DNA from: an uncultured Phycisphaeraceae bacterium
Lineage (GTDB): Bacteria; Planctomycetota; Phycisphaerae; WQYP01
Length of the DNA: 64,000 nucleotides
Assembly: GCA_964610975.1 (NCBI GenBank)
Contig: CAZSYN010000007.1
Span: forward strand, 26,150 to 90,149
Reading direction: 5' to 3'
Position 1 is the stretch's first letter, and each line of letters opens with the position of its first letter. A program made the translations under genes and the position numbers. The notes below the pieces were generated by a model, which was not told the origin of the DNA, searched no databases, and saw only the letters and a program-made list of their open reading frames with translations. Shown piece by piece: positions 10,604 to 52,172 of this stretch.

Positions 10604-11362
10604 ATGTCAGTTGTCAATTTCAATCGTGTAGTCGGTTCCTATGTAGCTGCGGCTGTACTGGGCGTTGTGGCGGCATCTCTTGCGTCAGCGGCGGTGGTCA
10701 GCACCCTAGATGGCACGACGTCGCTAGGTGGAAATCGCGTGACTCTCGCCAATGAAGGTGCGATTGAGACGCTGGCGACAGCGGGTTATGTTCTCTATGG
10801 GACTTCCACCAATTTTGATGATGTCAATTCTCGTCAGAGCGTTGTTCATCTTCCGTCGTGGGCAACTGTCAGCCTGGCGCCTGAGTTACAAGTGGAATAC
10901 ATGTGGAATGTAAGCAAGATTTCCGCCGGCGGCACGACTTATAACACCGGTTCAGCTTACTACGATGTTGGTACCACCCAGACTGTTGCATCCTTGGGAA
11001 CCATCACACTTGGGGCAGATGTCCCGTCTTCATTCACGTTGGGGCTACTGATTGGTAATGGATGGAATGGCGCCATGTACTCCGCAGCTATTGAAACGAG
11101 CTTAGTGAGCGGGTCGAGTACCGCAACACTCAATACCGCTGATCAGCTTGGAACCGAACGCGCAAACAATTTTTACCTCTTTACAATAACCGGAGCATCG
11201 GCAGGCGATACCATTGAAATTCGCCAGAAGACTGCTTGGTGGAGCGGTTACACGACGGTTGCCATCGGCGGTATTACGTTCAGTGTTGTTCCCGAGCCGG
11301 CTTCGCTTGGCATGCTGGGACTCGGCGCGATCGCCATGATGGCCCGTCGTCGGCATTTCTGA
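10604..11362 (+). CDS. PEP-CTERM sorting-domain protein (secreted / exosortase substrate)
   Basis: N-terminal signal peptide. The C-terminus 'VPEPASLGMLGLGAIAMMARRRHF' is a PEP motif followed by a TM helix and a basic tail. Confidence 0.8.
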   Translation: MSVVNFNRVVGSYVAAAVLGVVAASLASAAVVSTLDGTTSLGGNRVTLANEGAIETLATAGYVLYGTSTNFDDVNSRQSVVHLPSWATVSLAPELQVEYMWNVSKISAGGTTYNTGSAYYDVGTTQTVASLGTITLGADVPSSFTLGLLIGNGWNGAMYSAAIETSLVSGSSTATLNTADQLGTERANNFYLFTITGASAGDTIEIRQKTAWWSGYTTVAIGGITFSVVPEPASLGMLGLGAIAMMARRRHF

Positions 11363-11454: not shown

Positions 11455-14400
11455 ATGAGGTGGTCGATGCGCATATGGCGAGTGGTACGGAATGGAATGA
11501 TGACTGCGGCCACGGTCGTGGCGGTGATAAACGCAGCAGGCTTGGTCTGGGCTGACGGAGCCGCGCCCCTGATCGCGAGTTATGAAATGGAGCCGGATCC
11601 CTCAGCGGCCGCTCGCCTGGTGGATTCAGGCCCGCTGCATTTGAATGGCGAAATCCCACCGAGCTCGTACGTTCCCGGCCATAAGGGGATGGGTATCCGG
11701 ATCGGTTCTGATGAGCAGCGCGTAAAGGTTTACCCGGCCGGGCTCGCGGACAAGATTGGTAATGAGTTGACGATTTCAGCATGGGTAAATCCTTCAGCAC
11801 GGCCGTCGTGCAACCCTGTCTTGTGCAAGCGTGAGAATAACCAGGGTCAGCCGTTCGCGTTCGGAATCGCCGGCAACGGTAGGCTTTATTTCAGCGGTAG
11901 CGGCGGGGCGGAATGGTTCAATTTTTACAGTAACGGCGGTAACGAAATACCACTCAATCAATGGACCCACGTGGCGGTGACCTATCGTAAAAACGGCGAT
12001 TCGGTTCTATATGTCAACGGCAAAAAAACAGAACAGCGCGAAGCGACTTATACGCTGCAGAATAACGATTTTCCCCTTGTCATCGGCCGCGACTGGTATT
12101 GGGATGTTGGTTCCTCGCAGATGAAAGCGGCGCTGTTTCAGGGAACTCTTGATAGTATTCATATTTTTGCCGTAGCGCTTTCGGAACAGCAGATTACGCA
12201 GGATATGAGCGGCCAACTGGCCACCCGCGCCGCGAAGGATGCGGACTTCGGCGCGCCGATGCTGGCGAGTAAACTGCGGCTAGTGCGTTATGACATGCTG
12301 ATCGGCCAAGTGAATGAAAATGTCGATCGCGGCCGGACGCGGCAAACAGCCCTACGCAAAGGGGGGCCGGACGCTGTCGACTGGCCGGCGATCACTATTA
12401 AGCTGGACAAGCAGTTGCCACGGCAGATCTTCAAGGAATCAGGAGAGACTGCCTTTGAACTGCCATTGATCGATGACGGTCGTAACCGACCGCTGTTTCA
12501 GGAGTCGTACGATAACACCATTGAGCCGGGCGCGCATTGGCTGCGCGCTCTCAAATGGATGTGGGGGCAGACCTACATATACTCGACCGATGGCACAGCA
12601 CGTAGCTGGATGGCAGACTACGAACTTTGGACATTTCCAGTAATAATTCAGGGAACTGGCGAGCGCGATGTGCGCAACGTGACGTTAAAATATGATGGGC
12701 AGACGATCTACACCAGCACCGGGTCGCTTCATTCGCTTACCCTGCTGCTGCCGCAGAATATGCGCGGGAAAAAATATTCGCTGACGGTAGCTGGCGGAGC
12801 GCCTGTGGAATTTGATGTCGGCCTGATGCCCATCGAACCGGGTAAACCTGTCGAACAAGCGATCAGCTTCCAGCATACAATCTCCGGCGGCTTGAGCGTC
12901 GCATCACTGAGCCGGCCGGAGGAATTTCCAAATCAAAAAAAATGGGATGAGGATATCGCTGCGCTCAACAAACCGATTCCCGCATCCATTACGTATGTAC
13001 CGAGAAAGAATACGCTGGATTGGCATTTTGGAATTGATACTCAGCGTTCGCCTCTGACTGTTTATTTCAACGCACTTCCGCACGGCATGAGCAGCGGATC
13101 ATTTTTTGAAAGTACGTGGTATGGTGAGGAACTTCACAAACGCACACCAAAGGCTTTTAGTGAGATCGGATCGGCGGATGACTACGCTGACTATCTCTCT
13201 GATACCGGCTACGATCTGACAATTGAACGAGCATTTATTGGCTCACTAGAGGGTATCAAGGCCGGATCCAAAGATAAGGATTTCGGTAATCTTGCCCGTG
13301 CGTTGGCCGATCACGGTGTTCGGATCGGTTTTTCCCCTTCGGATTGGGATATCGCATCTCCCAGCCATCCGAATATTGCTTTTTTTTCATACAACCTTCC
13401 ACGTTACCATCAACCGATTTATCGGCAAATGCAACTTGGCATGCAGCGACTACGCGCTTATCCGAATGCGATGGGCGCTGCCATGGGGGCCGACAATGGT
13501 GCGTACATCAGCTTTTGGGATTGGGCTCCGCCGGTGCCTAACCGCCCGTGGGGAGAAGCATATATCAACCAACGCAAGGGACGCCCGGCGGTAGTGCCCA
13601 TGCCTGCACAACTTGATTTGGCTTATTCGCACAGTGTGCGGGCGAAGAATGTCGCAGAGTTTGTTGACTGGGTGGGCGAATACGATCTAGCATTTGGCCA
13701 GTATGGTTACTTTGCACACGCGATTTCGGAAGTGGATCCCAAGTTCACATTGACCACAGGATCTTTCGGCAGTTCGCCGGGCATTGGTGCAGGCGGCGGA
13801 TGGCCATGGGCTACGGTTCCAGGCAAAGTTATGTTCAAGGATATGAGTGTTCTTCAGGCCTACGACTGGAACGAACTGCTTTCCTCAAAACCGATGCATA
13901 TTGAGGCGTTGGTCGATCGTCTACGTTCATACTATCCAGATAAGCCGTGCTGGGCGCTCATTGACGATTTCGTGAATTTATTCGGACGCGAGGCGCGCCA
14001 AAGACAATATGCACTGGCTCTCACACGCGGTGTAAAATCCGTCGGAACGACTTTTCTTGCCAATCCAATGGGAGCAATCTCCCGGCGTGAAATCATCAAG
14101 GAGCAGAAAGAGCTTTACGATTGGATTCATAAGTTCGGCGGCGCTTATGCCATGACCGAGCCGACGCCAGTGGTGGGTATAATGTATGTGAACACACAGT
14201 CGCTGATGCGCCCAATTGATCAGGGTGCGCAAGAAACATATGAGGGACGCATTCGCGGTGGACATGAAGGCAAAACCAGCGAAGCATTATTCTTCTGTCA
14301 TGCGGCAGGACTGCCAGCAAAGATTATCACACCTGAGGAACTCAAGCGTGGATTGCCCAAAAGTATTAAGGTGATTCTGCTGACAGGGCTTAACGTGTAT

Positions 14401-15681
14401 GATGATTCGTGGCACTGGTATGACGGAATTGAGCGTGAACTCAGTCAGTTTACCGCCGGTGGAGGAAAAATCGTGGCGGATGACGAGTCGACGGCGCCAT
14501 TGCAGGTGATAAAAACCGATATGGTCGTACGTTCTTTCATCGCCCAACGGAATATGGATTGGACGCCCGATCTGCTCAAACGCAATCAAGATAATATCAG
14601 CAAGCTGCGCGCCGCTGTGAAGGGTGTTAATATTCCGGTAGCCGAGTCTGACAGCCAAACGGTATGGGCGGTACCGACGATTGCCGGTAATACCCAGTAT
14701 TTGACGGTGGTCAATCAGGCGACACCTGTAGGCAAGAATGGTAGCGAGTTTGTGGAAGGCCAGATCGGAACGATTAAGTGGAATACCACACGACCGATAT
14801 ACGATGTGCGCTTGGGTAAAAAAATTACTCCTCAGGAGGCACAGCGCGTAAACTTGATGGAAGATGGATTCCAGTGGTATGCGCTGCCCGTAGCTGAAGT
14901 GACGGTGCCGCAGGTAAATGTAACCAGAAACGCTTCGGGTCAGTATGAAGCAGCAGTAACGATCAGCAATCCATCGTCGATGACTGGTATTCCTGTCGAG
15001 ATCGTCATACATACTGCCGCGGATTCTAGCGGTCGGCGGGCGGTGCGAATCTACACAGCAACCGGAATGACGGCCGCGCTGCCACTAGCTGAAGGTGACC
15101 CGGCAGGAGAGTACGTGATCAAAGCAACCGAGTTGCTATCAGGGTTGAATGTATCGACGAAAGTAAAACTAGAGCCAAAAACGGAAATGAATGTTGCGGC
15201 GCCAGTTGAACTGGTTGGTGTTAATGCAATCCGTGCCTTTGGTGAGCGCTTGGATGTGCCACTGACTATCGGCATGACACCCGCACAGGCTGGCAACGCG
15301 AGCATTAAAGCTGTATGCGATCGACTGGTTCGTCACTATCAGTCTTTGGGTCGCAAAGTTGTATTAGGCAGCGTTGATGCGAACGGAATTGTCCTGTCAC
15401 TTCAGGAACAGGTAGGTTTTGCGATGTATCCGCAATGGCGTACGATAGATTCCGACCTTGTGTTGATTGGAAAGCCGAACAATAACGTGCTGTTGATGGA
15501 TCAAGCCAGAGGGTTTTTGCTGCCGTCTGCTCCAGCCAGTGGAAAACCAATGGTATGCGTCACGTATTCTCCTTTTGTCGGCGAGCGTCAATCGCTGAAC
15601 CTGCTGGCTTCCGATGCTGAGGCGATGGATGAGGCTGTCAGTGCGTTAATTAATTTGCCGCGTGCGCCAGGCGCAAAGTAA
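11455..15681 (+). CDS. Large secreted protein (~1400 aa) with a LamG / concanavalin-A-like lectin domain
   Basis: Start chosen at the internal ATG at 11455, ahead of the signal peptide 'MMTAATVVAVINAAGLVWA'. The ORF-track start at 11236 overlaps the upstream gene. The LamG-like block is 'LTISAWVNPS...WTHVAVTYRKNGDSVLYVNGK'. Confidence 0.7.
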   Translation: MRWSMRIWRVVRNGMMTAATVVAVINAAGLVWADGAAPLIASYEMEPDPSAAARLVDSGPLHLNGEIPPSSYVPGHKGMGIRIGSDEQRVKVYPAGLADKIGNELTISAWVNPSARPSCNPVLCKRENNQGQPFAFGIAGNGRLYFSGSGGAEWFNFYSNGGNEIPLNQWTHVAVTYRKNGDSVLYVNGKKTEQREATYTLQNNDFPLVIGRDWYWDVGSSQMKAALFQGTLDSIHIFAVALSEQQITQDMSGQLATRAAKDADFGAPMLASKLRLVRYDMLIGQVNENVDRGRTRQTALRKGGPDAVDWPAITIKLDKQLPRQIFKESGETAFELPLIDDGRNRPLFQESYDNTIEPGAHWLRALKWMWGQTYIYSTDGTARSWMADYELWTFPVIIQGTGERDVRNVTLKYDGQTIYTSTGSLHSLTLLLPQNMRGKKYSLTVAGGAPVEFDVGLMPIEPGKPVEQAISFQHTISGGLSVASLSRPEEFPNQKKWDEDIAALNKPIPASITYVPRKNTLDWHFGIDTQRSPLTVYFNALPHGMSSGSFFESTWYGEELHKRTPKAFSEIGSADDYADYLSDTGYDLTIERAFIGSLEGIKAGSKDKDFGNLARALADHGVRIGFSPSDWDIASPSHPNIAFFSYNLPRYHQPIYRQMQLGMQRLRAYPNAMGAAMGADNGAYISFWDWAPPVPNRPWGEAYINQRKGRPAVVPMPAQLDLAYSHSVRAKNVAEFVDWVGEYDLAFGQYGYFAHAISEVDPKFTLTTGSFGSSPGIGAGGGWPWATVPGKVMFKDMSVLQAYDWNELLSSKPMHIEALVDRLRSYYPDKPCWALIDDFVNLFGREARQRQYALALTRGVKSVGTTFLANPMGAISRREIIKEQKELYDWIHKFGGAYAMTEPTPVVGIMYVNTQSLMRPIDQGAQETYEGRIRGGHEGKTSEALFFCHAAGLPAKIITPEELKRGLPKSIKVILLTGLNVYDDSWHWYDGIERELSQFTAGGGKIVADDESTAPLQVIKTDMVVRSFIAQRNMDWTPDLLKRNQDNISKLRAAVKGVNIPVAESDSQTVWAVPTIAGNTQYLTVVNQATPVGKNGSEFVEGQIGTIKWNTTRPIYDVRLGKKITPQEAQRVNLMEDGFQWYALPVAEVTVPQVNVTRNASGQYEAAVTISNPSSMTGIPVEIVIHTAADSSGRRAVRIYTATGMTAALPLAEGDPAGEYVIKATELLSGLNVSTKVKLEPKTEMNVAAPVELVGVNAIRAFGERLDVPLTIGMTPAQAGNASIKAVCDRLVRHYQSLGRKVVLGSVDANGIVLSLQEQVGFAMYPQWRTIDSDLVLIGKPNNNVLLMDQARGFLLPSAPASGKPMVCVTYSPFVGERQSLNLLASDAEAMDEAVSALINLPRAPGAK

Positions 15682-15690
15682 GTATTGTGT

Positions 15691-15856
15691 TTAGAGCCTA
15701 TCCGAATATAACCCAGCGGCGGTCTGCTGGTCTGCCGGTTCATCTGCGGCGTCCTCGGGCCTCGGAATATTATAGAATATGCCTCGGCCCTGCGTCCTTG
15801 CAGATAAGCCGGCATCCTGCGCATCCCTTACCACTGGGTTATTCGGATAGGCTCTT
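15691..15856. repeat. MITE-like element, copy A (TIR-bounded, GC-rich core)
   Basis: TIR agagcctatccgaata(ta)acccag at 15693-15716 pairs with its reverse complement at 15831-15856. The core is homologous to the reverse complement of copy B (tctgctggtctgc..., tcctcgg..., atcctgcgcatc). Each end is flanked by TA. Confidence 0.55.
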
Positions 15857-15875
15857 AGTATGCAGGAGTTTGAAA

Positions 15876-16685
15876 ATGCGTGGTGTGGTTGGCATGTTGG
15901 TTTTCACTGGAATATGTCTATTAGGAACGGGGTGTCAGATCACTCCGTTCTCCAATGTGCCGGTAGCAATCGAGCGAAATAATCTTCCGGAACTCACCGT
16001 TCCCGTAGCGCGGCGAATTCCCCGTGTAGATGCTTCCGCCGATGATCCTGCATGGCAGGAAGCTGCGGTTATTTCCACACTATCGCTTTCCCGTGGCGGG
16101 GATAATATTGGAATGACTGCCTCGTCTACACGAGTATTGTTGCTCTGGCAGGAATCTTTTCTTTACGTGCGGTTCATCAGCATTGGTCGCGAGTATTATT
16201 CTCCTATCCACGGACGTGACGCTCAGTTGTATCAGGCTGATGTTGTGGAAGTATTTCTCGATCCAGTGGGTGATGGTAGGCAAATCGTTGAACTTGCGGT
16301 ATCACCCGCAAATGATGTTTTTGACCAGGTTCTGTTGCTGACGTGCGATGCCAAATGCAATGAACATGGCCGCTTGTTGCAGGATATTTTGGCGCGCGAC
16401 TTTTGGTCTGATCGAAGCTGGGATATCAACGGCCTCAAGACTGCTAGCCGGATCGAGGGATCATCATGGATTGTGGATATAGCGATTCCGGCGGCGGATC
16501 TGCTCCGTCGGCGTGGAGTGGAGACTTTTCGGACGATGGATCTTCGGGCAAATTTTCTCCGTTATGAATACCGTGCACAATCTATTGGTCAGCCGCGCCG
16601 TCACATTGCGATGAACTGGTCCGTAATTGATCACGGTTGCCCGCATATTTCCCCAGGAGCGTTCGGGATTCTCCGTTTACGCTGA
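15876..16685 (+). CDS. Lipoprotein with a CBM9-like / DOMON-like carbohydrate-binding domain
   Basis: Internal start at 15876 with a GGAG RBS. Lipobox 'LLGTGC'. 'DASADDPAWQEAAVIS...LLWQESFLYVRF...VEVFLDPVGDG' resembles CBM9-like domains. Confidence 0.6.
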   Translation: MRGVVGMLVFTGICLLGTGCQITPFSNVPVAIERNNLPELTVPVARRIPRVDASADDPAWQEAAVISTLSLSRGGDNIGMTASSTRVLLLWQESFLYVRFISIGREYYSPIHGRDAQLYQADVVEVFLDPVGDGRQIVELAVSPANDVFDQVLLLTCDAKCNEHGRLLQDILARDFWSDRSWDINGLKTASRIEGSSWIVDIAIPAADLLRRRGVETFRTMDLRANFLRYEYRAQSIGQPRRHIAMNWSVIDHGCPHISPGAFGILRLR

Positions 16686-16687
16686 CC

Positions 16688-16858
16688 TTTAGAAACTATC
16701 CCAAAAGGGGCCGGGCGTCAGATGCGCAGGATACGAGCCCGGATGCGAGGACGCAGGACCGAGTGATATTCGCCAATATCAGCGAGCGTCCGAGGACCAA
16801 GCAGACGGGCACGCAGACCAGCAGATAACCCCGGAAGCTTTTGGGATAGTTTCTTAGC
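16688..16858. repeat. MITE-like element, copy B (inverted relative to copy A)
   Basis: TIR agaaactatcccaaaag at 16690-16708 pairs with its reverse complement at 16838-16855. The TIR consensus is related to copy A (AGA[GA]NCTATCC[GC]AA[TA]A) and the core is homologous. Confidence 0.55.
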
Positions 16859-16951: not shown

Positions 16952-18601
16952 ATGAGGTATAAGATAGCGTTGTTGATGCTGGCTATCTGCGTACATGGCA
17001 AAACAGCGTTGGCCGCTGCCGAGACGCCGATTAGCTCGGCTGATTTTTATAATTCAATCGGAATCAATACGCATTTTGCATTTTCACTTGATTCAAATTC
17101 GATCTGGTATCAATCAACCATGCTTACTGATGCATTGATCAAGTTGAAAATTACGCATGTACGTGATAGCTTGATCCCAGCATATGTACTTGATTCCCAA
17201 TATGCAGACTCCAATTATCTTAAAGCTTTTAAGACCATGGGAGTTGCGGGCATCAAAGTGAATCTCATTACTTCGCCTACTGAGACTTATGGCAATCTCG
17301 GTACAATTCAGTCTTCCGTGAACAGTGTCATCGCCATTAACGCTCTTCATACCGGTACGGTTGAGGCCATTGAGGGGCCAAATGAACTAGATAATCAATC
17401 GTCTTGGACTTATAACGGCACAACTTACTCTGGTCGTACCGGCTTCGCCAAAGGAATCGTGCAATATCAAGCCGACTTGTATTGCGCCATCAAGACCAAC
17501 AGTTCAACACACGATCTTACTGTTATTGGCCCAAGCGAGGGCGGAACGTATTCGTCGCAGTATGGCAGCACCAGTAGCGGCGCACAACCCATCCCTAACG
17601 GCGCTCTGTATGACTATTGTGACTGGGGCAATTTTCATCCTTATACGTTCGGAGGTAATTTTGCCACACAGCATTATAGTTATGATACCATTAAGGACTG
17701 GTACTTTGGTAACAGCCAGTCTCCAAGTGTTAATCTGAGCCCTTCAACTACCGCTGGAATGGCTGATGGGACCAAAGCTTTCGCGTTTCAGAATTATCAG
17801 CAACCGTACCAGCGGTTTACTGACGGAGTAGTCGTTGATTCGCGTCCTATGGCTGCTACCGAGAAAGGATATTTCACCGGCACTGCGCAAAAGAGCGTTT
17901 CGCAGAGTACTTTTGCCAAATATATACCGCGAGTATTTGCAACGGATATGCGATACGGTATCGCTCGTACGTATTTATATGAATTGGTGGATGAGGGTGC
18001 AAATACACAGGATCCAGAACAGAATTTTGGGTTGATCCAATACGACGGTACTGCCAAGCCGGCGTACTATACGCTTCAGCATTTGCTTGCATTAACCGCC
18101 GATACCAGCACTGCTAAAAGTAAAAGTACGCTAGATTTCACTCTGAATGTCACCATTCCACAAGCCTATCAGACTGCCGATCCGAATTATTTCGGTATTC
18201 CAGAAACGGTTGAGCATCTGCTACTGCAAAAGGATGACGGCACTTATCAGCTGTTGTTATGGAATGAGGTATCATCATCTTCACTGACGGATTTGAATGG
18301 CAATACGCTGACTGGTACTGCGCGTGACATTGACGTTCCGGTATTCACCACAAAATTATCTATCGCGACGCCGATCATGAGCAACGCAACGTTATATATA
18401 CTGAATCCGTATGGAACCACCGCTGAAGATACCCTTATTACCCGCAATGTGTCTTTTTTGAATAACGAATTGGTTTTGGATGTTCCGGATTACGTTATTA
18501 TACTTGAATTCAGCGCCGTGCCTGAGCCGACTACTATGACTATTCTTGGATTGGCCGGTATCCCTTTGATTTGTAGGCGGTCGCGCAATTGGGGTGTATG
18601 A
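16952..18601 (+). CDS. Secreted PEP-CTERM protein, putative glycoside-hydrolase-like (TIM-barrel) enzyme
   Basis: Signal peptide 'MRYKIALLMLAICVHGKTALAAA'. 'IEGPNELDN' resembles a GH5/GH39 catalytic-acid motif. C-terminus 'VPEPTTMTILGLAGIPLICRRSR'. Confidence 0.65.
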   Translation: MRYKIALLMLAICVHGKTALAAAETPISSADFYNSIGINTHFAFSLDSNSIWYQSTMLTDALIKLKITHVRDSLIPAYVLDSQYADSNYLKAFKTMGVAGIKVNLITSPTETYGNLGTIQSSVNSVIAINALHTGTVEAIEGPNELDNQSSWTYNGTTYSGRTGFAKGIVQYQADLYCAIKTNSSTHDLTVIGPSEGGTYSSQYGSTSSGAQPIPNGALYDYCDWGNFHPYTFGGNFATQHYSYDTIKDWYFGNSQSPSVNLSPSTTAGMADGTKAFAFQNYQQPYQRFTDGVVVDSRPMAATEKGYFTGTAQKSVSQSTFAKYIPRVFATDMRYGIARTYLYELVDEGANTQDPEQNFGLIQYDGTAKPAYYTLQHLLALTADTSTAKSKSTLDFTLNVTIPQAYQTADPNYFGIPETVEHLLLQKDDGTYQLLLWNEVSSSSLTDLNGNTLTGTARDIDVPVFTTKLSIATPIMSNATLYILNPYGTTAEDTLITRNVSFLNNELVLDVPDYVIILEFSAVPEPTTMTILGLAGIPLICRRSRNWGV

Positions 18602-18971: not shown

Positions 18972-20490
18972 TGTCTGTCAAATTGCGCACAATTGAGAAG
19001 AGCTTCTCCGCAGGAAGCTTATGGCGAGAGGATGAGGCCTGAGCCGTAGGCGAAGGCCTCATCACCTCACACGCGCGGCTCACGCGGCCGCCGGTTCTGG
19101 GGTCTTCTGCTCGTGTTCTCCTGCTGGTCTCGGATTCTCTCCGCCGGCCTCCTGTTCCCATAGCCGGTTCATGTCCAGGTACTTGCGCGTTCCCCACTTG
19201 GTTCCGGCTACATGCCGCAATCTTGCTGCCGTGAGCATCAGGGCGCTTTGTCCGTCTGGGAACGCTCCCACCACCCGCGTGCGCCGCCGGACCTCCCGGT
19301 TCAGCCGCTCCAGCGGATTGTTGGTTCTCAGGCACCGCCAGTGCTCCCGCGGGAAGGCGTAGTAACTCAAGGTCTCCATGGCGCCTTCAGAGACGATCTG
19401 CGCCGCCTTGGATAGCTTCATCTCGATCAGCTTGGCCGCCACCGCCTGAACCTTCTCCTGGGCCGCGGGCTTGTCTTCCTGCGCGTGGATCGCCTTGAGC
19501 ATGGCCACTACCGGCGCCATCTTGTTATGTGGAACCGCCGTCATCACGTCACGGTAAAAATGCACCACGCACCGTTGCCATTTGGCCTGCGGATAGCACG
19601 CTCCCAACGCTTCCACCAGACCCAGGCACTTGTCGCTGACAAACAGCCTGACTCCCGTCAGACCGCGCTCTTTTAAGTGCCGCATAAAATTCAGCCAGCT
19701 TGCGCCATCTTCCTTGGCCCCTTCGGCCACGCCCAAAACCTCCCGGTAACCGTCCTGATCGACTCCGATGGCAATGAGCACCGCGACATTCTTCACTTCG
19801 CCGCCCCAGCTGCGTTTGAGCCAGATGCCGTCCAGATACACATACGGATGCTGGCCTTCGATCTTCCGGTTCCGCCAACTCTCGATCTGAGAGTAAACCT
19901 TCTGGGCCATCTGGCTGACCGTGCTGGCGCTGGTGCGCACGCCCCAGAGCGCCTCGGTAATGTCTTCCACCCGCCGCATCGAGACGCCTGATAGATACAT
20001 CTCTACCAGGGCTTCTTCGACCGACGATTCGCGGCGCTTGTAGCGCTCGATGATCGCCGTCTCCAGCGGCAACTTCCGCAGCCGGGGCACCTTAAGCGTC
20101 ACTTCGCCCGCCTGGGTCACCAGCTTCCTGGAATAACTGCCCGCGCGGGTGTCCTGGCGCTCGGGCGAGCGTTCGTAACGCTCGGCGTGGCAGAGTCGGT
20201 CGGCCTCGGCATCCAGCAGGCTGTTGAGCGTCTGTTCCACCGTCTCGCGCACCATCTGATCCACGTGCGACCTGACCTTGGCCGCATCCACTGAAAAGGC
20301 CTCTTTCAGCGGTTCTACGGCCGATTCGGTCTGCGGACTGACTTCCTGGGTCACTTCTCTCGTGCCTTCCTGACTCTGATCTGGTAACTTGTCCATTGCA
20401 GCTCTCCTTGTGGGTTTGGGGTTGCTCGTACACAACAACACCTTCCCGCGGAGAGTCTGCTTTTTCAAATCTGCGCATCTTTCAGTACGT
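18972..20490. mobile_element. IS256-family insertion sequence (~1.5 kb) with imperfect ~45-bp terminal inverted repeats
   Basis: One transposase ORF is flanked by related inverted ends at 18975-19020 and 20440-20487 (ctgNNaa.tgcgca...ctccgcNggaag). Confidence 0.7.
19080..20396 (-). CDS. IS256-family (mutator-type) transposase
   Basis: 'YLDGIWLKRSWGGEVKNVAVLIAIGVDQDGYREVLG...' is the MULE/IS256 signature. Start set at 20396 (MDKLPD...) with RBS aaggagag; the ORF-track start is 20468. Confidence 0.85.
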   Translation of the reverse strand: MDKLPDQSQEGTREVTQEVSPQTESAVEPLKEAFSVDAAKVRSHVDQMVRETVEQTLNSLLDAEADRLCHAERYERSPERQDTRAGSYSRKLVTQAGEVTLKVPRLRKLPLETAIIERYKRRESSVEEALVEMYLSGVSMRRVEDITEALWGVRTSASTVSQMAQKVYSQIESWRNRKIEGQHPYVYLDGIWLKRSWGGEVKNVAVLIAIGVDQDGYREVLGVAEGAKEDGASWLNFMRHLKERGLTGVRLFVSDKCLGLVEALGACYPQAKWQRCVVHFYRDVMTAVPHNKMAPVVAMLKAIHAQEDKPAAQEKVQAVAAKLIEMKLSKAAQIVSEGAMETLSYYAFPREHWRCLRTNNPLERLNREVRRRTRVVGAFPDGQSALMLTAARLRHVAGTKWGTRKYLDMNRLWEQEAGGENPRPAGEHEQKTPEPAAA

Positions 20491-34103: not shown

Positions 34104-34195
34104 TAGGCTGTTAGACTGTAGACTATTAGACGGTTAGGAAGAAGGGTGCCGTGTATGTGTGCCTAATAGCCTAACAGTCTGTAGTCTAACAGTCT
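34104..34195. repeat. IVS-like palindromic element, copy 1
   Basis: Arms taggctgttagactgtagactattagacggttagg and cctaatagcctaacagtctgtagtctaacagtctc. It fills the gap between two genes. Confidence 0.7.
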
Positions 34196-39294: not shown

Positions 39295-39437
39295 GTGAGA
39301 CTGTAGGCTGTTAGGCTATTAGGCTGTTAGGTCAGACAATGACGCCTTGGACTCTTTTCCTAACAGCCTAACAGTCTGTAGTCTAATAGTCTTAATTCCT
39401 CCCAAAAGTCAAACAGCCTGTAGCCTAATAGTCTTCC
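39295..39437. repeat. IVS-like palindromic element, copy 5
   Basis: Arms gagactgtaggctgttaggctattaggctgttaggtcag and cctaacagcctaacagtctgtagtctaatagtc, plus an extra half-arm. Confidence 0.7.
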
Positions 39438-42208: not shown

Positions 42209-44314
42209 TTACGCTTCTCCTTTGTTCTTCACGCCCGCGCGCGGATCCTGCATCGCCACGCCAAAATCGTGATAACCGCGCACCGTGATGCCCAGCACAT
42301 TGGGATTGGCTTCAATCGTTTCAATGGTGGGCGACTCATTACCATTCAGGAACGCGACTTCAATTAGCGGCAGGTCGTTGGCATCCGCCAGCAGGTACCA
42401 GGCCTTCTGGCTGGAGCCAGCGTACCGGGCATTGCCCAGGTATCGACTGACTTCCACCCGGTAGGCATTCTGGTGCGGGTTGGCGATCGGCATTTTGGTA
42501 TTGCTGGTCGTATCGCGGATTTCCGTCGACTTATAAAGCTGCGTCGCCATGGCCGAGAGTGACGTCGGCACCAGCAATACTTTCGGATCGACGCTGATCG
42601 GCTTGCCATCCGAATCGACCTGATCATTAAACGCCTGCACTGCATTACTCAGGGAATCAATTCCCAGCACCGTACCGGCGCCGGAGAGATAATTCTTATT
42701 GGCGGCGGCGAAGATGGCAGCATTGTTCAGGAAGATCGTCCAGAACACATCATTGATCTTCAGACCCGACCCACGGCCGAGCTTGCGCGGCACGGTGGTG
42801 ATGGCGCCCAGATCATCATTGATGATGTCGCGCCGTTCAATCGTCAGCATCAGGCCGTAAGTGTCGGCCTTGTTGGTGTAGATTTCATTACCGAGGGTGC
42901 CGTGCTTAAGCTCACCGCCGGGCGCAATCAATTCATACTGATCGGTACCGATCAAGCGGTAGCTCGTGACGGTCTTAAAGTCCGTCACACTGCGGACCGC
43001 ACAGATATTCCGCCAGGTCCGTTCAACCGAGAAGAATCCGTCGAGCAGGAACTTATTACCGACATTCGAGAGAATCGGCGCGATATCAATCGTGGCATAT
43101 CCCGCCTCAATCTGCGCTTTGCTCGGGAAGGCCATCGCCATGATGGTATGCGGATCACTGCGGAAGGTGCGGCCGATGTAACCATTGACCATCGCCGCTT
43201 CCACCATCAGGTCCTGCAGGCTGATTCCGTTCCGGAATCGTTTGCTGGCGGCATCCAGATCCTGCTCGCTGCAGTGGTTTCCCGGTTTGGATAAACCTGC
43301 CGAGAGCAGACAGGCCGCCTCCAGCATGGCCGATGTCGTCGGTCCAGGCGAAGCAAAGCTAAAGCCCATCGGCGCACCCATGACATTGCCACCCGCCACG
43401 GGCGCCTTGGGCCGACTGGCGCGCAGAACTTCCAGTTCCGTCTTGGTCTGATCCCAGCCATCACGAATCGCCTGCGCTTCAATATCTGTACACTTGCCAT
43501 TGCAGATTCGGCGAATGCCGGCGATGCGGTTGGTCTCCGCAAGCGCTTCGGCGCGAATCTGATCCATACTGCGAACATCCGCTGCATTGACCGCAGATAC
43601 GGCGGCCGCCTGAACCGGCGGAGCGGCAACAGCGGTGCCAGCAGAACCAGTACCTGTCGACGTGCTGGCGGATGTTGAATTGGTAGTGGTGGAAGTGTTT
43701 GTGGTAATACCGTCCATCGTGGCGGTCTCCTTTTCATGTACTGTATCGATCTGCGACGCGGCCACCTGCGCAGAGGTGTTGCCGTCGGCGCCCAGGTCTA
43801 CAAAACTGATCTCGCCCAGTGTTGCCTTGCGGACAACATTCACCGGGCCCTCAAACGTCCGGCCGTTGACAATGGCCTTCTGGCCATCTTTGACGAATTC
43901 AAACTCTTCCACTGACGCGCCAATACTGGCCTGCCAGGGGAAGCCATTCTTGGAACTGACGACAATCTCCCGCGCCGCCGGCGTATCCCGTGAGACCACG
44001 CCAGCCGCGATGAGTTGCCCGGCCTCTACGGAGATGGCATCAGTATGACCGACACCCGCACCCGCGCTGGCATCATGGCCAAAGCGGATCGGCCTGTTTT
44101 GACTCGGGATCGCCAGACCTGCCAGATCCACAATCACCGGGAAGCGCCAGCCGGCGATCCTCATCGGCCCGCCGGTGTAGGCCACCATGCGAAAGCGCGG
44201 CAAGGCTGGCGCAGCACCGGTTTCGCCCGCTGGCATGCCTGCCTCAATTTGAAAGCTCGCCAGCAGCGCCAGCGGACCGGCCTGATTGTCATTCTTCTTG
44301 GGCGACTGACTCAT
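42209..44314 (-). CDS. Prohead protease – major capsid protein fusion (HK97-fold)
   Basis: Start at 44314 (MSQSPKK) with an AGGAGA RBS. The N-terminal ~200 aa is protease-like (HD... and S.G segments). A Thr/Ser-rich linker follows, then a capsid-like C-terminal ~450 aa. Confidence 0.6.
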   Translation of the reverse strand: MSQSPKKNDNQAGPLALLASFQIEAGMPAGETGAAPALPRFRMVAYTGGPMRIAGWRFPVIVDLAGLAIPSQNRPIRFGHDASAGAGVGHTDAISVEAGQLIAAGVVSRDTPAAREIVVSSKNGFPWQASIGASVEEFEFVKDGQKAIVNGRTFEGPVNVVRKATLGEISFVDLGADGNTSAQVAASQIDTVHEKETATMDGITTNTSTTTNSTSASTSTGTGSAGTAVAAPPVQAAAVSAVNAADVRSMDQIRAEALAETNRIAGIRRICNGKCTDIEAQAIRDGWDQTKTELEVLRASRPKAPVAGGNVMGAPMGFSFASPGPTTSAMLEAACLLSAGLSKPGNHCSEQDLDAASKRFRNGISLQDLMVEAAMVNGYIGRTFRSDPHTIMAMAFPSKAQIEAGYATIDIAPILSNVGNKFLLDGFFSVERTWRNICAVRSVTDFKTVTSYRLIGTDQYELIAPGGELKHGTLGNEIYTNKADTYGLMLTIERRDIINDDLGAITTVPRKLGRGSGLKINDVFWTIFLNNAAIFAAANKNYLSGAGTVLGIDSLSNAVQAFNDQVDSDGKPISVDPKVLLVPTSLSAMATQLYKSTEIRDTTSNTKMPIANPHQNAYRVEVSRYLGNARYAGSSQKAWYLLADANDLPLIEVAFLNGNESPTIETIEANPNVLGITVRGYHDFGVAMQDPRAGVKNKGEA

Positions 44315-45851
44315 CGTCATTCTCCTGATCCACAGGTGTACTTGCTGGGGTTGAGGTCGTCGGCGTCGCAACCAACCCGAGTTCCTTCATCAACGCCATT
44401 TCCTTGGCTCTCTGGCGCAGCTCAGCTTCCCAGTCGCGTCCCTGGCGCGCATATTCATAGGCAAGGGTGGTGGTATTGCTGGCCAGGCGCGTGGCCTGAG
44501 CATTGGCTTCCTTGGCCGGGTCTACATGTTCCTGGCCATCCCAAAACCACTGGTGGAGAGGCAAGGCTGTTTGGCTGCAGGCTGTTTGACTGTTAGCTTC
44601 GCCTAACAGCCCAACAGTCAAACGGCCTAACAGTCCTTCCACTAATCTGGCTTCGCTCAACCAAGCCCGCAAAATCGGATCGAGTACCACGCGACCCATA
44701 TGCGCCTGATCGACGCGGATCGATTTGTAATAGACCTGATGATCCAGACGTCCCGACGCGTAGTTGTAGCCCGATGAATTGCCCGCCGCGACATTAAACG
44801 GCATGTTCAGGCAGCGAGAGATTTCGTTGAGGATTTCCTTTTTGAATTCACCGTAAGTCGTCGTCGGCTGCTCGGCGGTGACCTGACCCAGTTTCCATCC
44901 ACCGGGCAAGACCGTTGCCATGCGCCGTTCCAACTCCACGATATCCATCGGTTCAACTGGATCGGCCTCGCCGTTGGCGGGCGCATCGGTATACAAAACC
45001 GCTGCAAAATCCGCAGCCGTCTCCGCTGCCGCAATCACCGCAAGCGTGTAACGCCGCAATTGGGCAAACAGTGGCAGCGCGGCCGTGATCTCTGGAATCC
45101 CCCGGCTCTGGCCGGGACGATCAGTACGGTAATAATGAATCATCGCACTGGCTGGGATCCGATCAAAGCCAGAAAGCCACGATCCGAAGAGTGAGTTATC
45201 ACCTGGATGCGCACGAAGCAAATGATATTCAACAGGATTCCCGTAGTTGTCATACACAATGCCATCAGTCAGGCTGTTAGGCTGTAGACTGTTAGACTGT
45301 TTGTGCCTAATAGCCAAACGGTCTAAAAAGCTAACAGCCTCCCACGGCGTGCTGATCTGGTCCGCTTCAAAGAGCTTCAGATCCAGCTTCACCGGCGAAT
45401 CAATCATGGGATTGGCTACCAGCATGCCAAAGACTTCACCCGATTCGGCGCGCGAAGCGCGCATGGTGCGGAGCTTTTCAGGGAGCCGAATTGCCTCCGC
45501 CCAGTGCATAAACTCCTGCTCGGCCACCCGGTTGGCTGCATCCTGCTCGGTGAGCATCTGCAAGCGCGGGCCGGTACCGACGACATCATTAGCGAGCGTG
45601 AGCACAATCCCACGGGCATACGAGTTGTTCGCTACCTCGTAGCGCGCACGAGCACGCAAGGTCTTGCGTACGGCCGCACTGTTGGCGGCGTTCGCCGAGA
45701 GATGATCGGCGGCGGCCCAGTGGCGACGGTTATCGTCATTGGTGGCCGCCGCATCATAGCGGCCGCCAATCCGCATGGGCACGTGCACAAAGCGCGTGAC
45801 CCGCTGCACCGATTGCGCCGGCAGAAGTTTTTTGAGTAGTCCCATCATCAC
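44289..45851 (-). CDS. Portal protein
   Basis: The 520-aa size, position after the terminase, and the '...RYEVANNSYARGIV...' N-terminus are typical of lambda/HK97-type portals. It contains two in-frame repeat-element insertions. Confidence 0.7.
   Translation of the reverse strand: MMMGLLKKLLPAQSVQRVTRFVHVPMRIGGRYDAAATNDDNRRHWAAADHLSANAANSAAVRKTLRARARYEVANNSYARGIVLTLANDVVGTGPRLQMLTEQDAANRVAEQEFMHWAEAIRLPEKLRTMRASRAESGEVFGMLVANPMIDSPVKLDLKLFEADQISTPWEAVSFLDRLAIRHKQSNSLQPNSLTDGIVYDNYGNPVEYHLLRAHPGDNSLFGSWLSGFDRIPASAMIHYYRTDRPGQSRGIPEITAALPLFAQLRRYTLAVIAAAETAADFAAVLYTDAPANGEADPVEPMDIVELERRMATVLPGGWKLGQVTAEQPTTTYGEFKKEILNEISRCLNMPFNVAAGNSSGYNYASGRLDHQVYYKSIRVDQAHMGRVVLDPILRAWLSEARLVEGLLGRLTVGLLGEANSQTACSQTALPLHQWFWDGQEHVDPAKEANAQATRLASNTTTLAYEYARQGRDWEAELRQRAKEMALMKELGLVATPTTSTPASTPVDQENDDESVAQEE
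44571..44650. repeat. IVS-like palindromic element, copy 7 (in frame within portal)
   Basis: gcaaggctgtttggctgcaggctgtttgactgttagc / ttcgcctaacagcccaacagtcaaacggcctaacagtcc, translated as 'LLGRLTVGLLGEANSQTACSQTA'. Confidence 0.65.
45261..45333. repeat. IVS-like palindromic element, copy 8 (in frame within portal)
   Basis: aggctgttaggctgtagactgttagactgtttg / gcctaatagccaaacggtctaaaaagctaacagcctcc, translated as 'EAVSFLDRLAIRHKQSNSLQPNSLTDG'. Confidence 0.65.
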
Positions 45852-46223: not shown

Positions 46224-46418
46224 TTATGCCCGTTCGCGCGTAGGGATGCGCCGGCCACAATAACGACACTCACGCAGACGCATGATGCAACCCGGCCGGG
46301 CACGCGTATACACAACATCCAGATGCCGGCAACCGCACTTGGGACATGCAAGACCACGCGGAACGGGTGCATGGTCCGTCCTTGCGGAATTTTCGTTGAT
46401 GGGTAATGGGTCTCTCAT
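46224..46418 (-). CDS. C4 zinc-ribbon protein (NrdR / Ogr-Delta-like finger), translationally coupled to terminase
   Basis: 64 aa. 'CPKCG...VVYTRARPGCIMRLRECRYCGRRIPTRE' carries two CxxC pairs ~22 residues apart. It has an ATGA overlap with the TerL stop and a GGAGG RBS. Confidence 0.55.
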   Translation of the reverse strand: MRDPLPINENSARTDHAPVPRGLACPKCGCRHLDVVYTRARPGCIMRLRECRYCGRRIPTRERA

Positions 46419-48715
46419 CTCCGCCTCCCCTGGATATCGGATAAACGCACGCGCGCTTTGCGTGGCGCTTCCTTGCTGTCCGTGCCAAACAAGACCGCTC
46501 CCTGCATGCTCGCACCGACCGCGCAACCGACCAGACAATCCAGCCAGTGGTTATCCAGGCCCGGCGTGCGGAGTTTCCATTCATCAAGCTGACGGCCACG
46601 ACCGGATGTCTTGATGCAATACTCGGCGGCCAGATGCTCTGACACAAGCCGATGATCTGTACCAGCAAAGAGTGACAGACATCCCGGATCACCCATCGGC
46701 ACCGCCAAGCGTGCATGCACAAAACTCTTCCAGTAGTTGGTATCAATCAGCGCATACCGCACAGCGCGCTTGCCCTGCAGGTTGGGGATGCGCCAATGCA
46801 GCCCGGTGCGATCTCCCTTGCGCGGCTTGTAATCAGAGAACGGCGTACTGGCCGCGCCGACATAACGCCCGTGGCTGGGCATCACAATGGCCGAGTGTGC
46901 CGATTGTCGGCAGAACTGATACACCACATCGGTACTGTTGCCCCAGTTGGCGTCAATCAAACACCGCTCAATGGTCATCTCGGCGCCATCATCACGCTGG
47001 AACTTACGGGATAAATGCACTGCCGTCAGGGCCTCCAGCCCAGCGTAGATCGCCCCTTCCTGGCCGGTGCCGCTATGAACCAACATCAACGTCCGCCGAG
47101 CATCACGTAATGTAAAATACGCTCGCTTCTGGTCCGGATACTCCCCATAGTCCAGCACGTACCCAGTAAAATCATCCTCCCAACCGCAGATCAGCCAATA
47201 CAGCAGCGTCCCCTGCACATCCACAAACATCGTCAGATGGCTCACGCCGACCGGCAATTCGCCACGCTTCATACCATTGGTCTTCTCGGCAATCGTGTCC
47301 GCCGAGAGCATGTCGGATCCGAGCGTTTCCTCCGGTAGCGGTTCATTTTGGTATTCAGCCCAGAACGCGGCGTCCCCCTGATCCAGCTTGAGATTCATGG
47401 CATGCTGAATGGCCGAGAGTTCATCGGGATTGTACCGATGAGACCAGGCGACTTTGGCTCCCGCATCCATATCGATCTGGTTGGCATGATAAAACTCAGT
47501 CGCTTCGCCGACGCCACGGTCATTGCGCTGACCATCCGCACGGAGCTGGGCATACTGCTGCCAGAGTTTTTCGTTAGCGGGGAAAACATACACCATCTTC
47601 GTGCGCTGGCCCTGCCACTGCGGATGTTTATCGCGATTCAGGATCCGATCCGCCATATCATCCGGTCTCACGACCGTCAGCGTCATGAGACCAGCAATCT
47701 TGCGTCCCGGACCCGCCAACCCCAAAATCGCACCCGCCAGGATCTGCTCACGCGTGACACACTGGGAGGGTGACCGTGCCGATTCATCGGTTTGAGGATC
47801 ATCCAGCAGCACCAGCGACGGGCGCACCGTCTTGCCATCGGCCCGCTTGTGCTTCATGCCACGGATACGACCGGTGATGCCGGCGACCTTAATCACCGCA
47901 CCCGAGGCCGCGCTCCCCGGTATCGTCGGCAGCGCAATATCCTTGGCCGTCCAGCCAATATGGGTGCGCGCCCCCTGGTAAAGCTGCCCGGCTGCGCGCT
48001 GGTGGATCCCTTCGAGCGCCCGGATGGGCCCACAGGCCTCAGAAAAATCCTCCTCCAGCAGGTCGTTATTCTCCAGTTCCGATTTGATCGACTCGAGCAT
48101 ATCCCCGGCATGCTCTTCGTCCGCGCCGATCAGGGCCACAAATTCCCGGTGACCGTAGAGTAGCGCCCATAGGCAGGCAGTCTCGCACAAGGTGGTTTTG
48201 CCCGAGCCACGCGGCATGGCCATCGCAAACAGACCGCCATTGAGGACTGCCTCTTCAATCTTGGCAATGACTTTGAGGTGATCGTCCGACCAGGCCAGAT
48301 GAAACGTCTGTAGAAAGTACAACTCGCAAAATAGACGGAAGGACCGGCGGCAACGTTCCTTACGTTCCAGGTCCACCGGCGCATGGATCCAGTTCTCCTG
48401 GGTAATATCGCGCGAGGATTCCGACATCCCCCGGCTGCGCGCATTGACCGCCTCTTTGTGCGCCGCGTAATTCTTCTCCGTCCACCCCGGCTCAAAGGAT
48501 TCATGCCGCGCATGAAACAGCCACGCCGCGTAACGGACAAGATCGATACGTCGCCCATCACCGATGCGGTACGCCGCTCGGTTCAGGTGCCGATACACCA
48601 CATGCGGCCCAGCCACCTCGCCCAGCGGCGTGGAGTTCAGCAGCCGCACGACCTCGGCCACGCGAAGTTGTCGGGGATCCATTTTCACCTGGATTGCATC
48701 TCCCGCATCAGCCAC
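46415..48715 (-). CDS. Terminase large subunit with a ~200-aa N-terminal extension
   Basis: Walker A 'AMAMPRGSGKTT' and Walker B-like 'LVLLDDPQTDE', followed by a C-terminal nuclease region. Confidence 0.8.
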   Translation of the reverse strand: MADAGDAIQVKMDPRQLRVAEVVRLLNSTPLGEVAGPHVVYRHLNRAAYRIGDGRRIDLVRYAAWLFHARHESFEPGWTEKNYAAHKEAVNARSRGMSESSRDITQENWIHAPVDLERKERCRRSFRLFCELYFLQTFHLAWSDDHLKVIAKIEEAVLNGGLFAMAMPRGSGKTTLCETACLWALLYGHREFVALIGADEEHAGDMLESIKSELENNDLLEEDFSEACGPIRALEGIHQRAAGQLYQGARTHIGWTAKDIALPTIPGSAASGAVIKVAGITGRIRGMKHKRADGKTVRPSLVLLDDPQTDESARSPSQCVTREQILAGAILGLAGPGRKIAGLMTLTVVRPDDMADRILNRDKHPQWQGQRTKMVYVFPANEKLWQQYAQLRADGQRNDRGVGEATEFYHANQIDMDAGAKVAWSHRYNPDELSAIQHAMNLKLDQGDAAFWAEYQNEPLPEETLGSDMLSADTIAEKTNGMKRGELPVGVSHLTMFVDVQGTLLYWLICGWEDDFTGYVLDYGEYPDQKRAYFTLRDARRTLMLVHSGTGQEGAIYAGLEALTAVHLSRKFQRDDGAEMTIERCLIDANWGNSTDVVYQFCRQSAHSAIVMPSHGRYVGAASTPFSDYKPRKGDRTGLHWRIPNLQGKRAVRYALIDTNYWKSFVHARLAVPMGDPGCLSLFAGTDHRLVSEHLAAEYCIKTSGRGRQLDEWKLRTPGLDNHWLDCLVGCAVGASMQGAVLFGTDSKEAPRKARVRLSDIQGRRR

Positions 48716-49488: not shown

Positions 49489-49941
49489 TCATAGGTTTCC
49501 TTTCACCCCGGCCACGGTGACCGGGGTTTTCTCCGACCACAAAGTTTCATTCGCTCGATGCTGCCGCTTGTTCTCCACCGCCAATTCGCTGGCGCAGCGC
49601 TTGCAGACGCCCATGACGCCCGTGGTGCCGGGGTAGACATAGAATTCATCCGCCACCCGCTTATACCAGCGGCAGCGGCGGCATCGCTTCCACCAGGTGT
49701 CTCCCGTGCGGTAACACCGACCGTGGATGCGCTTGTGCGTCAGCCGGGTGACCAGACAGAGGTTCTCGATCCGGTTGTCGAGCTTGTCGCCGTTGATGTG
49801 ATGGATTTCCATCCCTTCCGGGACCGGGCCGTGGTGATCTTCCCACACCACGACATGCTCCATCACGAGCCGACGACTCCCCGGACGCCGCACGCGCCGG
49901 TAGCCATACTCCGTGATGGTGCCGCGAGCCGGAGGTCTCAT
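49489..49941 (-). CDS. HNH endonuclease (packaging-associated)
   Basis: 'HHINGDKLDNRIENLCLV...H' plus Cys-rich zinc ligands. It sits adjacent to the terminase. Confidence 0.8.
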   Translation of the reverse strand: MRPPARGTITEYGYRRVRRPGSRRLVMEHVVVWEDHHGPVPEGMEIHHINGDKLDNRIENLCLVTRLTHKRIHGRCYRTGDTWWKRCRRCRWYKRVADEFYVYPGTTGVMGVCKRCASELAVENKRQHRANETLWSEKTPVTVAGVKGNL

Positions 49942-52067: not shown

Positions 52068-52172
52068 GCAGAGCGGTCAGTCACACGCGCACAAAGGCCT
52101 TTCCCTTTAGGCGCGGTCCTCTCCGCGCCTAAGGGGGGTGTGGGGGGTGTGCGTGACTGACCGCTCGGCTGT
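52068..52172. promoter_or_regulatory. Nested inverted repeats at the replication / regulation module junction
   Basis: Outer arms gagcggtcagtcac(ac)gc at 52072-52089 and gcgtgactgaccgctc at 52152-52167. Inner arms ccctttaggcgcgg and ccgcgcctaagggg with a G-run. The primase stop codon lies inside. Upstream at ~51955-51972 is a tatttgcg direct repeat in an AT-rich stretch. Confidence 0.4.

Follow-up and report, generated by a model that had tools for sequence, protein, structure and literature searches.

Here we describe two related short elements, termed A and B, which stand on either side of a CBM9-like lipoprotein gene of an uncultured Phycisphaeraceae bacterium, within a 64,000-nt stretch of DNA (hereafter the window; contig CAZSYN010000007.1 of assembly GCA_964610975.1, positions 26,150 to 90,149 of the forward strand). 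Very probably, A and B represent two separate insertions of a non-autonomous, Tourist-like transposable element of the miniature inverted-repeat type (MITE) into a native operon, presumably mobilised in trans by a transposase of the IS5 family. An initial annotation of this DNA had instead taken the pair for a composite-transposon-like frame around a single gene.

Results

Elements A and B

Element A comprises 161 nt (15694–15854; plus strand by convention) and was delimited by its terminal inverted repeats (TIRs) and arms, its fold, its alignment to the minus strand of B and a covariance model (195 bits). Element B, 162 nt long (16692–16853), lies in the inverse orientation and scored 199.5 bits in the covariance model, on the minus strand. 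Alignment and repeat finder agree on two related, inversely oriented MITE-like elements at the places named in the initial annotation, which had set their limits at 15691–15856 and 16688–16858; this placement holds, while the exact ends are those given here. Element A opens with GAGCCTATCCGAATA and closes with TATTCGGATAGGCTC, element B opens with GAAACTATCCCAAAAGG and closes with CTTTTGGGATAGTTTC. The left TIR of A (GAGCCTATCCGAATA, 15694–15708, plus strand) is 100% complementary to the right one (15840–15854, minus strand; located by repeat finder and degenerate-pattern search) and fits the superfamily consensus GAGCCTATCCGAAWA introduced below. In B, the CBM9-proximal TIR (GAAACTATCCCAAAAGG, 16692–16708, plus strand) is complementary to 16838–16854 at 17/17 positions in blastn, and the other TIR was placed at 16837–16853 (minus strand) by repeat finder, pattern search and blastn. 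TIR complementarity thus amounts to 16/16 in A and 17/17 in B, where it extends to 25 nt at 88%, and the first three bases read GAG in A and GAA in B. The two TIRs had been called related, and a degenerate TIR pattern bears this out by recovering all four ends: they account for four of its seven matches in the window, against 0.48 expected. The remaining three (11694, 21177 and 22465), each with two mismatches, fall into coding genes for LamG, Rce1-like protease and PD40 proteins and were dismissed as chance.

Both copies are bordered on both sides by a direct TTA, with T before and G after each (T/TTA/G). These trimers were read directly from the sequence, at 15691–15693 and 15855–15857 around A and at 16689–16691 and 16854–16856 around B. 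The flanks had earlier been described as TA, which falls one base short of this direct 3-bp repeat, and a search for target-site duplications had been proposed; TTA/TTA is what it yields at A as well as at B. Neither element has a credible coding capacity, three open reading frames (ORFs) within them have no exact match on record, and both fall below the size limit applied here for MITEs (about 300–400 bp). Their GC content is 55–61%, as compared to 47–57% in CBM9 and in the LamG gene upstream, and 35–45% in the DNA past B. Accordingly, the description of the surroundings as otherwise AT-richer applies downstream of B only, and not to LamG and CBM9.

Full-length alignment of A(+) with B(−) gave 110/165 identical positions, as opposed to 91/168 for A(+) with B(+), and blastn within the window matched the cores of the two elements over 82 nt (75.6% identity, E 9e-6). 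As overall identity is about 67% and the TIR variants differ between the copies, A and B are, by this comparison, old or independent copies rather than a recent matched pair.

No third A/B copy was found in the window by blastn (word size 7), by the TIR pattern or by an unfiltered covariance-model search, whose weak matches were generic intergenic hairpins. The best non-self match of that model (21.8 bits) lies at 3476–3525 and is an intergenic palindrome with 23-nt arms (87% complementary) and a 4-nt loop, terminator-like in its look. A 12-bp resemblance to the B TIR, formerly put at 6866–6877 and taken as a sign of further decayed copies, is attributed to chance: its real position is 6870–6881, its blastn E-value is about 1, and the stretch that contains it (6783–6924, minus strand) matches group II intron domains D1–D4 (Rfam RF02003, 104 bits, E 3.7e-22).

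A wider family in metagenomes

Metagenome contigs were scanned with a pattern of 11 bases per TIR (CTATCCSAAWA, a gap of 115–145 nt, TWTTSGGATAG), leaving flanks and interior free. This returned at least 120 loci. Flank statistics refer to the 114 matches with complete flanks among the matches listed. In these, the four unspecified bases outside each end were G (83–88%), A (79–84%), G or A, and C (74–75%), and GA[GA][CT] was present on both sides in 67/114. Identical TTA or TAA trimers stood on both sides in 71/114 (38 TTA/TTA, 33 TAA/TAA), discordant ones in three, and offsets other than the TWA position gave 0–3 identical trimers. Since TTA and TAA are reverse complements, the ratio of 71 direct to 3 discordant pairs marks a genuine target-site duplication and not an extension of the inverted repeat. 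A YTWAR context surrounds 60 of the 71 duplicated-TWA matches, and likewise A and B. We thus arrive at a superfamily terminal repeat of 15 bp, GAGCCTATCCGAAWA (as a search pattern, GAGCCTATCCSAAWA), with TWA as its target duplication. Among the listed elements, G occupies TIR position 1 in 86%, A position 2 in 82%, and G or A position 3 in 61% and 35%, respectively. At the variable positions 11 (G/C) and 14 (A/T), both arms agree in 114/118 and 111/118 listed elements, so that the "compensated" TIR differences between A and B reflect a general property of the family.

The listed elements have a median length of 162 nt, a mean GC content of 55% and a mean fold energy of −84 kcal/mol. Given these averages of about 162 nt and −84 kcal/mol, A and B are typical members. 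Subfamilies of 28, 12, 6, 5 and fewer elements, plus about 40 singletons, were distinguished, with interiors unrelated between subfamilies; what stays constant across the superfamily are the 15-bp ends and a length of about 160 nt, while the interiors vary with stems kept by compensatory substitutions. Several contigs carry two to three copies, and extra full or partial copies occur on several. The host loci range from 31% to 71% GC, the habitats are sediment, soil, sludge and freshwater metagenomes, and the elements adjoin ordinary genes (ABC transporters, kinases, dehydrogenases), being isolated single elements in more than 100 metagenome contigs. Judged from their termini, A and B are members of a widespread MITE superfamily in environmental bacteria. 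The MITE identity of the pair, first put forward as "MITE-like", is strongly supported by features of the sequence, namely the small noncoding body, the TIRs, the direct TTA duplication and the large repeated family in metagenomes (at least 120 loci).

The same data bear on an integron-type reading, according to which the palindromes would be attC sites bounding a promoterless cassette. The comparison suggests itself in that imperfect palindromes about as large as attC sites enclose a single gene. However, the two sites are oppositely oriented, and their ends (TTAGAGCC...GGCTCTTAG, i.e. GAGCC...GGCTC, plus direct TTA) differ from the RYYYAAC...GTTRRRY of attC, while the same ends and TWA duplication recur in the isolated metagenome elements. 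Besides, a Pfam scan of 26 ORFs of the window, which was not exhaustive, returned no tyrosine recombinase. We therefore regard a cassette as scarcely credible.

As to the class of the family, the duplication of TWA (3 bp) and a terminus that begins with GAG, signatures rather than a transposase sequence, point to a Tourist-like, IS5-type kind (IS427/IS1031 groups) for A and B. Termini that begin GAG or GA are a feature of the IS427 and IS1031 groups in the ISfinder tables. Tourist MITEs, PIF-Harbinger elements and their IS5 relatives have in common with the present family the TWA duplication, the GAG start, short TIRs and, for the MITEs, a small noncoding body; they differ in that the body of the A/B family is one covarying hairpin and that neither the window nor 920 kb of metagenome loci yielded an autonomous partner with these TIRs. 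In canonical Harbinger elements, target duplications are 3 bp long and transposase trees group them with IS5, IS427, IS1031, IS903 and ISL2 (PMC12730594). IS1237 of Leifsonia, an IS427/IS1031-like member of the IS5 family, has repeats that begin with GAG and duplicates TTA (TAA) (PMC2516522), yet its repeat GAGGTGGTTTCAGTAGTCG has only the GAG start in common with GAGCCTATCCGAAWA.

The superfamily appears to be undescribed. Full-text literature searches with TIR strings returned primers and unrelated sequences only. With the covariance models of Rfam 15, A and B gave no match at the gathering threshold in the window and nothing meaningful at E<=10 on their region, nor did eight loci of another MITE subfamily at E<=1. 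A distant blastn search of PLSDB plasmids found nothing for A; for an element of subfamily 1, the only match (43 nt, 86% identity) fell into a TonB gene and was judged unrelated. The single match of a TIR-only scan of IMG/VR, in an AT-rich phage, was put down to chance.

The host gene cluster

Upstream of A lies a LamG-domain giant gene (11467–15681, plus strand; 1404 aa as called; Pfam Laminin_G_3) that stops 9 nt before the TTA of A. The CBM9-like lipoprotein gene (15876–16685, plus strand; Pfam CBM9_1) follows, preceded by an AGGAG at 15864–15868 outside A, and a gene for a 549-aa protein (16952–18601, plus strand) is located downstream of B. Further upstream, the cluster includes genes for a GntR-type regulator with a periplasmic-binding-protein domain (7927–9111), an N-methyl/DUF1559 protein (9670–10476) and a PEP-CTERM protein (10604–11362). 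The presence of the latter two would suit a PVC-type bacterium. The CBM9 start and ribosome-binding site are untouched by A. When A and one TTA are excised, a 30-nt LamG-CBM9 spacer remains in which AGGAG stands 7 nt before the ATG and the ribosome-binding site is intact; excision of B leaves a 101-nt spacer after CBM9. The predicted junctions read GTATTGTGTTTAGTATGCAGG without A and CGCTGACCTTTAGCAGTCGGG without B. A 332-aa ORF (15687–16685) that runs in frame through all of A into CBM9 is an artefact, as the lipoprotein signal peptide begins at ATG 15876, the real CBM9 start; it could mislead gene callers.

The closest CBM9 homologs are 45–49% identical (nearest, 49%), and at three distant relatives' loci they lie within the same type of cluster. 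Blastp ties every cluster gene of the window (GntR, DUF1559, LamG and 549-aa) to cluster genes of these relatives. At locus L015, a LamG homolog beside CBM9 is 42% identical over 972 aa, and the gene directly upstream of CBM9 is a homolog of the 549-aa protein gene (26% over 544 aa, E 2e-29). The GntR homologs in the relatives' clusters are 28–31% identical, and at L012 the LamG-like gene shares a 4-nt overlap with CBM9. No TIR match was found in the cluster loci of the three relatives. By this comparison of gene content, CBM9 is a native member of a polysaccharide-related operon, and the most plausible reading of A and B is that they entered the spacers on its two sides independently.

This evidence weighs directly on the composite-transposon frame, in which the A/B pair would act jointly, by its outer or inner ends, to carry CBM9 in or out as cargo. 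Two related inverted copies do bracket exactly one gene, and MITE pairs mobilise intervening DNA elsewhere, e.g. in an integron mobilisation unit (PMC3184786). The target duplications are compatible with such a composite as well, and they do not discriminate between it and separate insertions, each of the four flanks being the TTA that the family prefers. Against it stand the clustering of CBM9 homologs with those of both neighbours, GntR and DUF1559 in relatives without the elements, a CBM9 GC content that equals that of the upstream LamG gene, the divergence of the two copies at about 67% identity with different TIR variants, and the lack of any transposase in our searches. We hence consider joint transposition with CBM9 as cargo very unlikely, and the frame as first proposed is not supported.

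Several spacers of the relatives contain long palindromes that are unrelated to A and B. At L015, one follows right after the CBM9 homolog (7920–8025; 44-nt arms, 86% complementary) and further ones occupy cluster spacers at 5421–5472 and 12418–12500, while at L136 the 329-nt spacer after the LamG homolog (9471–9800) folds at −187 kcal/mol. It may be common in these genomes for intergenic DNA to form long hairpins.

Whole-length hairpins and covariation

Both elements are palindromic over their whole length (A is 69% and B 68% identical to its own reverse complement). As a single strand, A folds into one long hairpin (−89.4 kcal/mol, z −7.6), as does B (−77.1 kcal/mol on the plus and −78.6 kcal/mol on the minus strand, z −7.1). 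In a consensus hairpin of A and B with 45 pairs, 10 are changed on both sides yet paired, two are changed on one side via G-U and none is broken, although this 100% pairing is partly circular, the structure having been derived from the same two sequences. With the partner columns shifted by 1–3, only 0–2 compensated pairs remain.

The palindromes also left a trace in Logan contigs, that is, two independent short-read assemblies of the same organism, which break at or near both palindrome centres. From left to right, a first contig stops at 15737, a second covers 15803 to 16772 or 16777, and a third begins at 16757, so that about 65 nt around the centre of A are absent from the contigs retrieved. 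With k = 31, which we take to be the setting of these assemblies, the position of the breaks, central and not at the borders of the elements, probably reflects a hairpin-related drop-out in sequencing or assembly and not a multi-copy repeat.

Stronger covariation was observed in an alignment (A3) of 23 members of the largest subfamily (metagenome loci L017–L134). Its 51 predicted pairs are 94.3% paired, 27 of them with compensatory change, and 163 compensatory cells compare to 47.8 ± 5.7 in shuffles (none of 500 reached this number) and to 16–29 when partners were slid by 1–3 columns. Some pairs run through GC, AU, CG and UA and never lose their pairing. The internal loops (columns 24–33 and 141–147) are invariant and asymmetric, with GTC opposite A and with CCGA opposite GAA beside G-C helices; the latter recalls a tandem G-A or kink-turn-like motif. 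In a simple foldback transposon, invariant asymmetric loops of this kind would not be expected. A second, less diverged subfamily has compensatory change in 8/65 pairs. G-T exceed A-C mismatches on the aligned strand (29 vs 13, p about 0.02), a figure biased by the structure choice of RNAalifold and by shared ancestry. Possible sources of the covariation are selection for transposition competence, concerted evolution of the palindrome arms or a function at the RNA level.

The last of these leads to a reading in which the hairpins are host-level RNA elements, kept because they would process or attenuate the transcript, or block its decay, and so make the expression of CBM9 differ from that of its neighbours. 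The very stable folds in both orientations would fit, as would A/B stem differences that are without exception compensated or G-U compatible, the strong covariation in another subfamily with its weak, one-stranded G-T over A-C excess, the location of both elements within a co-directional gene string with ribosome-binding site and coding sequence untouched, and the unrelated palindromes in equivalent spacers of relatives (L015 7920–8025 and L136). On the other hand, the probably single transcript carries A and B in opposite orientations, so that they have no strand-specific RNA motif in common, and no Rfam model matched. Simple consensus scans gave neither a sigma-70-like promoter in A or B nor a proper intrinsic terminator, the terminator-like matches being arm fragments without a proper T tract. 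The earlier suggestion that the pair supplies promoter and terminator signals is not supported by these scans. Moreover, the A/B consensus structure is partly circular as noted, the covariation would arise equally from selection for transposition competence or concerted arm evolution, and the G-T excess carries the biases named above. We rate this RNA role as unlikely, though well above the composite frame. A similarly low probability attaches to a broader proposal, in which the long hairpin would be a functional structured nucleic acid and the family a widespread, undescribed class of "structured MITEs", acting either as folded single-stranded DNA or RNA in mobilisation or as a module for RNA processing or stability within operons that hosts have retained repeatedly.

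Other mobile and repeat features of the window

The region around A and B is rich in mobile DNA, given an IS256/Mutator-family transposase gene right after the 549-aa gene (19080–20468, minus strand) and, further left, an IS3-type integrase-core ORF (4512–5477), together with a zeta-toxin-like ORF (3859–4428) and a Fic protein gene (799–1848). A short-read contig stops at 18948, as expected at a repeated insertion sequence (IS), next to the IS256/Mutator transposase. A different MITE-like unit of 164 nt (6377–6540), with 22-nt TIRs (TAGAGCGTGTTATGCACTTTGA and TCAAAGTTCATAACACGCTCTA, 95% complementary) and without sequence similarity to A or B, is found just upstream of the group II intron fragment.

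Downstream, a prophage-like block occupies approximately 23000–62800 on the minus strand and includes genes for a capsid protein (42209–44371), a terminase gpA nuclease (46415–48715), a ParB-N6/N4 methylase (49938–51347), a Prim-Pol/AAA_25 primase-helicase (52107–54212) and a ResIII/DEAD-box helicase-domain protein (54225–55991), all on this strand. Between prophage-like genes, a separate family of intergenic palindromes with short repeated units (AGGCTGTTAGACTGTAGACTATTAGAC) is present at 34105–34195, 39298–39384 and 44579–44628.

Discussion

The present data are best accounted for by two independent arrivals of a small selfish element in an existing operon. In the history that we propose, a noncoding MITE of about 160 bp with 15-bp TIRs, which duplicates the 3-bp TWA inside a YTWAR site, would have entered a TTA in the 30-nt spacer between LamG and CBM9 to give A, and another copy would have entered a TTA in the 101-nt spacer past CBM9, in the opposite orientation, to give B. 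Mobilisation in trans would have been due to a DDE transposase of the IS5 family (IS427/IS1031-type, relatives of PIF/Harbinger) that reads the 15-bp ends. The copies are probably stranded now, as the window holds no such transposase. If the genes are co-transcribed, the CBM9 cistron would be framed in the mRNA by two hairpins (−77 to −89 kcal/mol). By analogy with other bacterial MITEs, these could be cut by RNases or could hinder decay or read-through.

Several observations weigh against these separate MITE insertions. No parent has come to light: there is no IS or transposase with matching TIRs in the window, and a search of 920 kb of MITE-bearing metagenome loci for TIR pairs spaced as in an IS, for ORF clusters that recur and for matches to half an element gave no transposase but only ABC transporters, kinases, short-chain dehydrogenases/reductases and similar. 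Six-frame translations of A and B, concatenated, had no match at E<=10 among 5.8 billion proteins. Besides, the A/B subfamily has two known copies only, and their interiors match none of 116 metagenome elements, the TIR being all that is common, so that A and B form a two-member subfamily of their own. A genome-contig scan with a pattern of interior plus TIR gave seven matches whose profile was that of chance, in coding DNA of unrelated taxa; the subfamily-specific scan of genome contigs missed the window's own copies as well, the source genome being absent or masked there. Short-read contigs reach 44–97 nt into the elements from unique flanks, which argues against other identical copies. The equivalent spacers of relatives are without this element, and these relatives are just 45–49% identical in CBM9, so that their spacers are not true empty sites. 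Finally, stem compensation (10/45 pairs in A/B, 27/51 in A3) exceeds what is expected of passively decaying selfish DNA, and this covariation hints at a constraint on the hairpin that lies outside an explanation by MITE insertion.

Precedents for elements of this kind exist in other bacteria. Chunjie, a MITE from Geobacter uraniireducens, is likewise inserted inside an operon whose genes it leaves undisrupted and has a very stable predicted RNA hairpin (PMC3184786, PMC10969869), but it is 178–235 bp long and A+T-rich, with 21-bp TIRs and 9-bp direct repeats (PMC3184786), as opposed to about 160 bp, 55% GC, 15-bp repeats and a 3-bp TWA duplication for A and B. The Nezha MITEs of cyanobacteria (130–170 bp) resemble A and B in size, in their TIRs with direct repeats and in the stable hairpin, and their parent IS was found only in another species (PMC3184786). 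The comparison with Nezha/ISNpu3 is one of description; literature text searches gave no match. Long imperfect intergenic palindromes are also typical of Correia/NEMIS and ERIC elements, which are taken up into mRNAs, where RNases can act on them, or can bring regulatory sites with them (PMC10969869, PMC3184786). Their terminal repeats and targets are other than those of A and B. Correia elements, for instance, duplicate TA. The MITE-flanked integron mobilisation unit, lastly, shares with our locus two MITE copies that bracket a gene-bearing segment. Its pair is near-identical, transposition has been shown and the target duplication is found at the outer ends only, whereas A and B are about 67% identical, are each flanked by TTA and enclose a gene that is native to the operon.

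In summary, what seemed to be a gene in a transposon frame would turn into an ordinary operon with two selfish insertions. The terminal repeat GAGCCTATCCGAAWA, taken together with the TWA duplication, should be usable to mark a bacterial counterpart of Tourist MITEs, and with its covarying stems this family lends itself well to testing whether selection on MITE hairpins acts through transposition or through RNA functions of the host.

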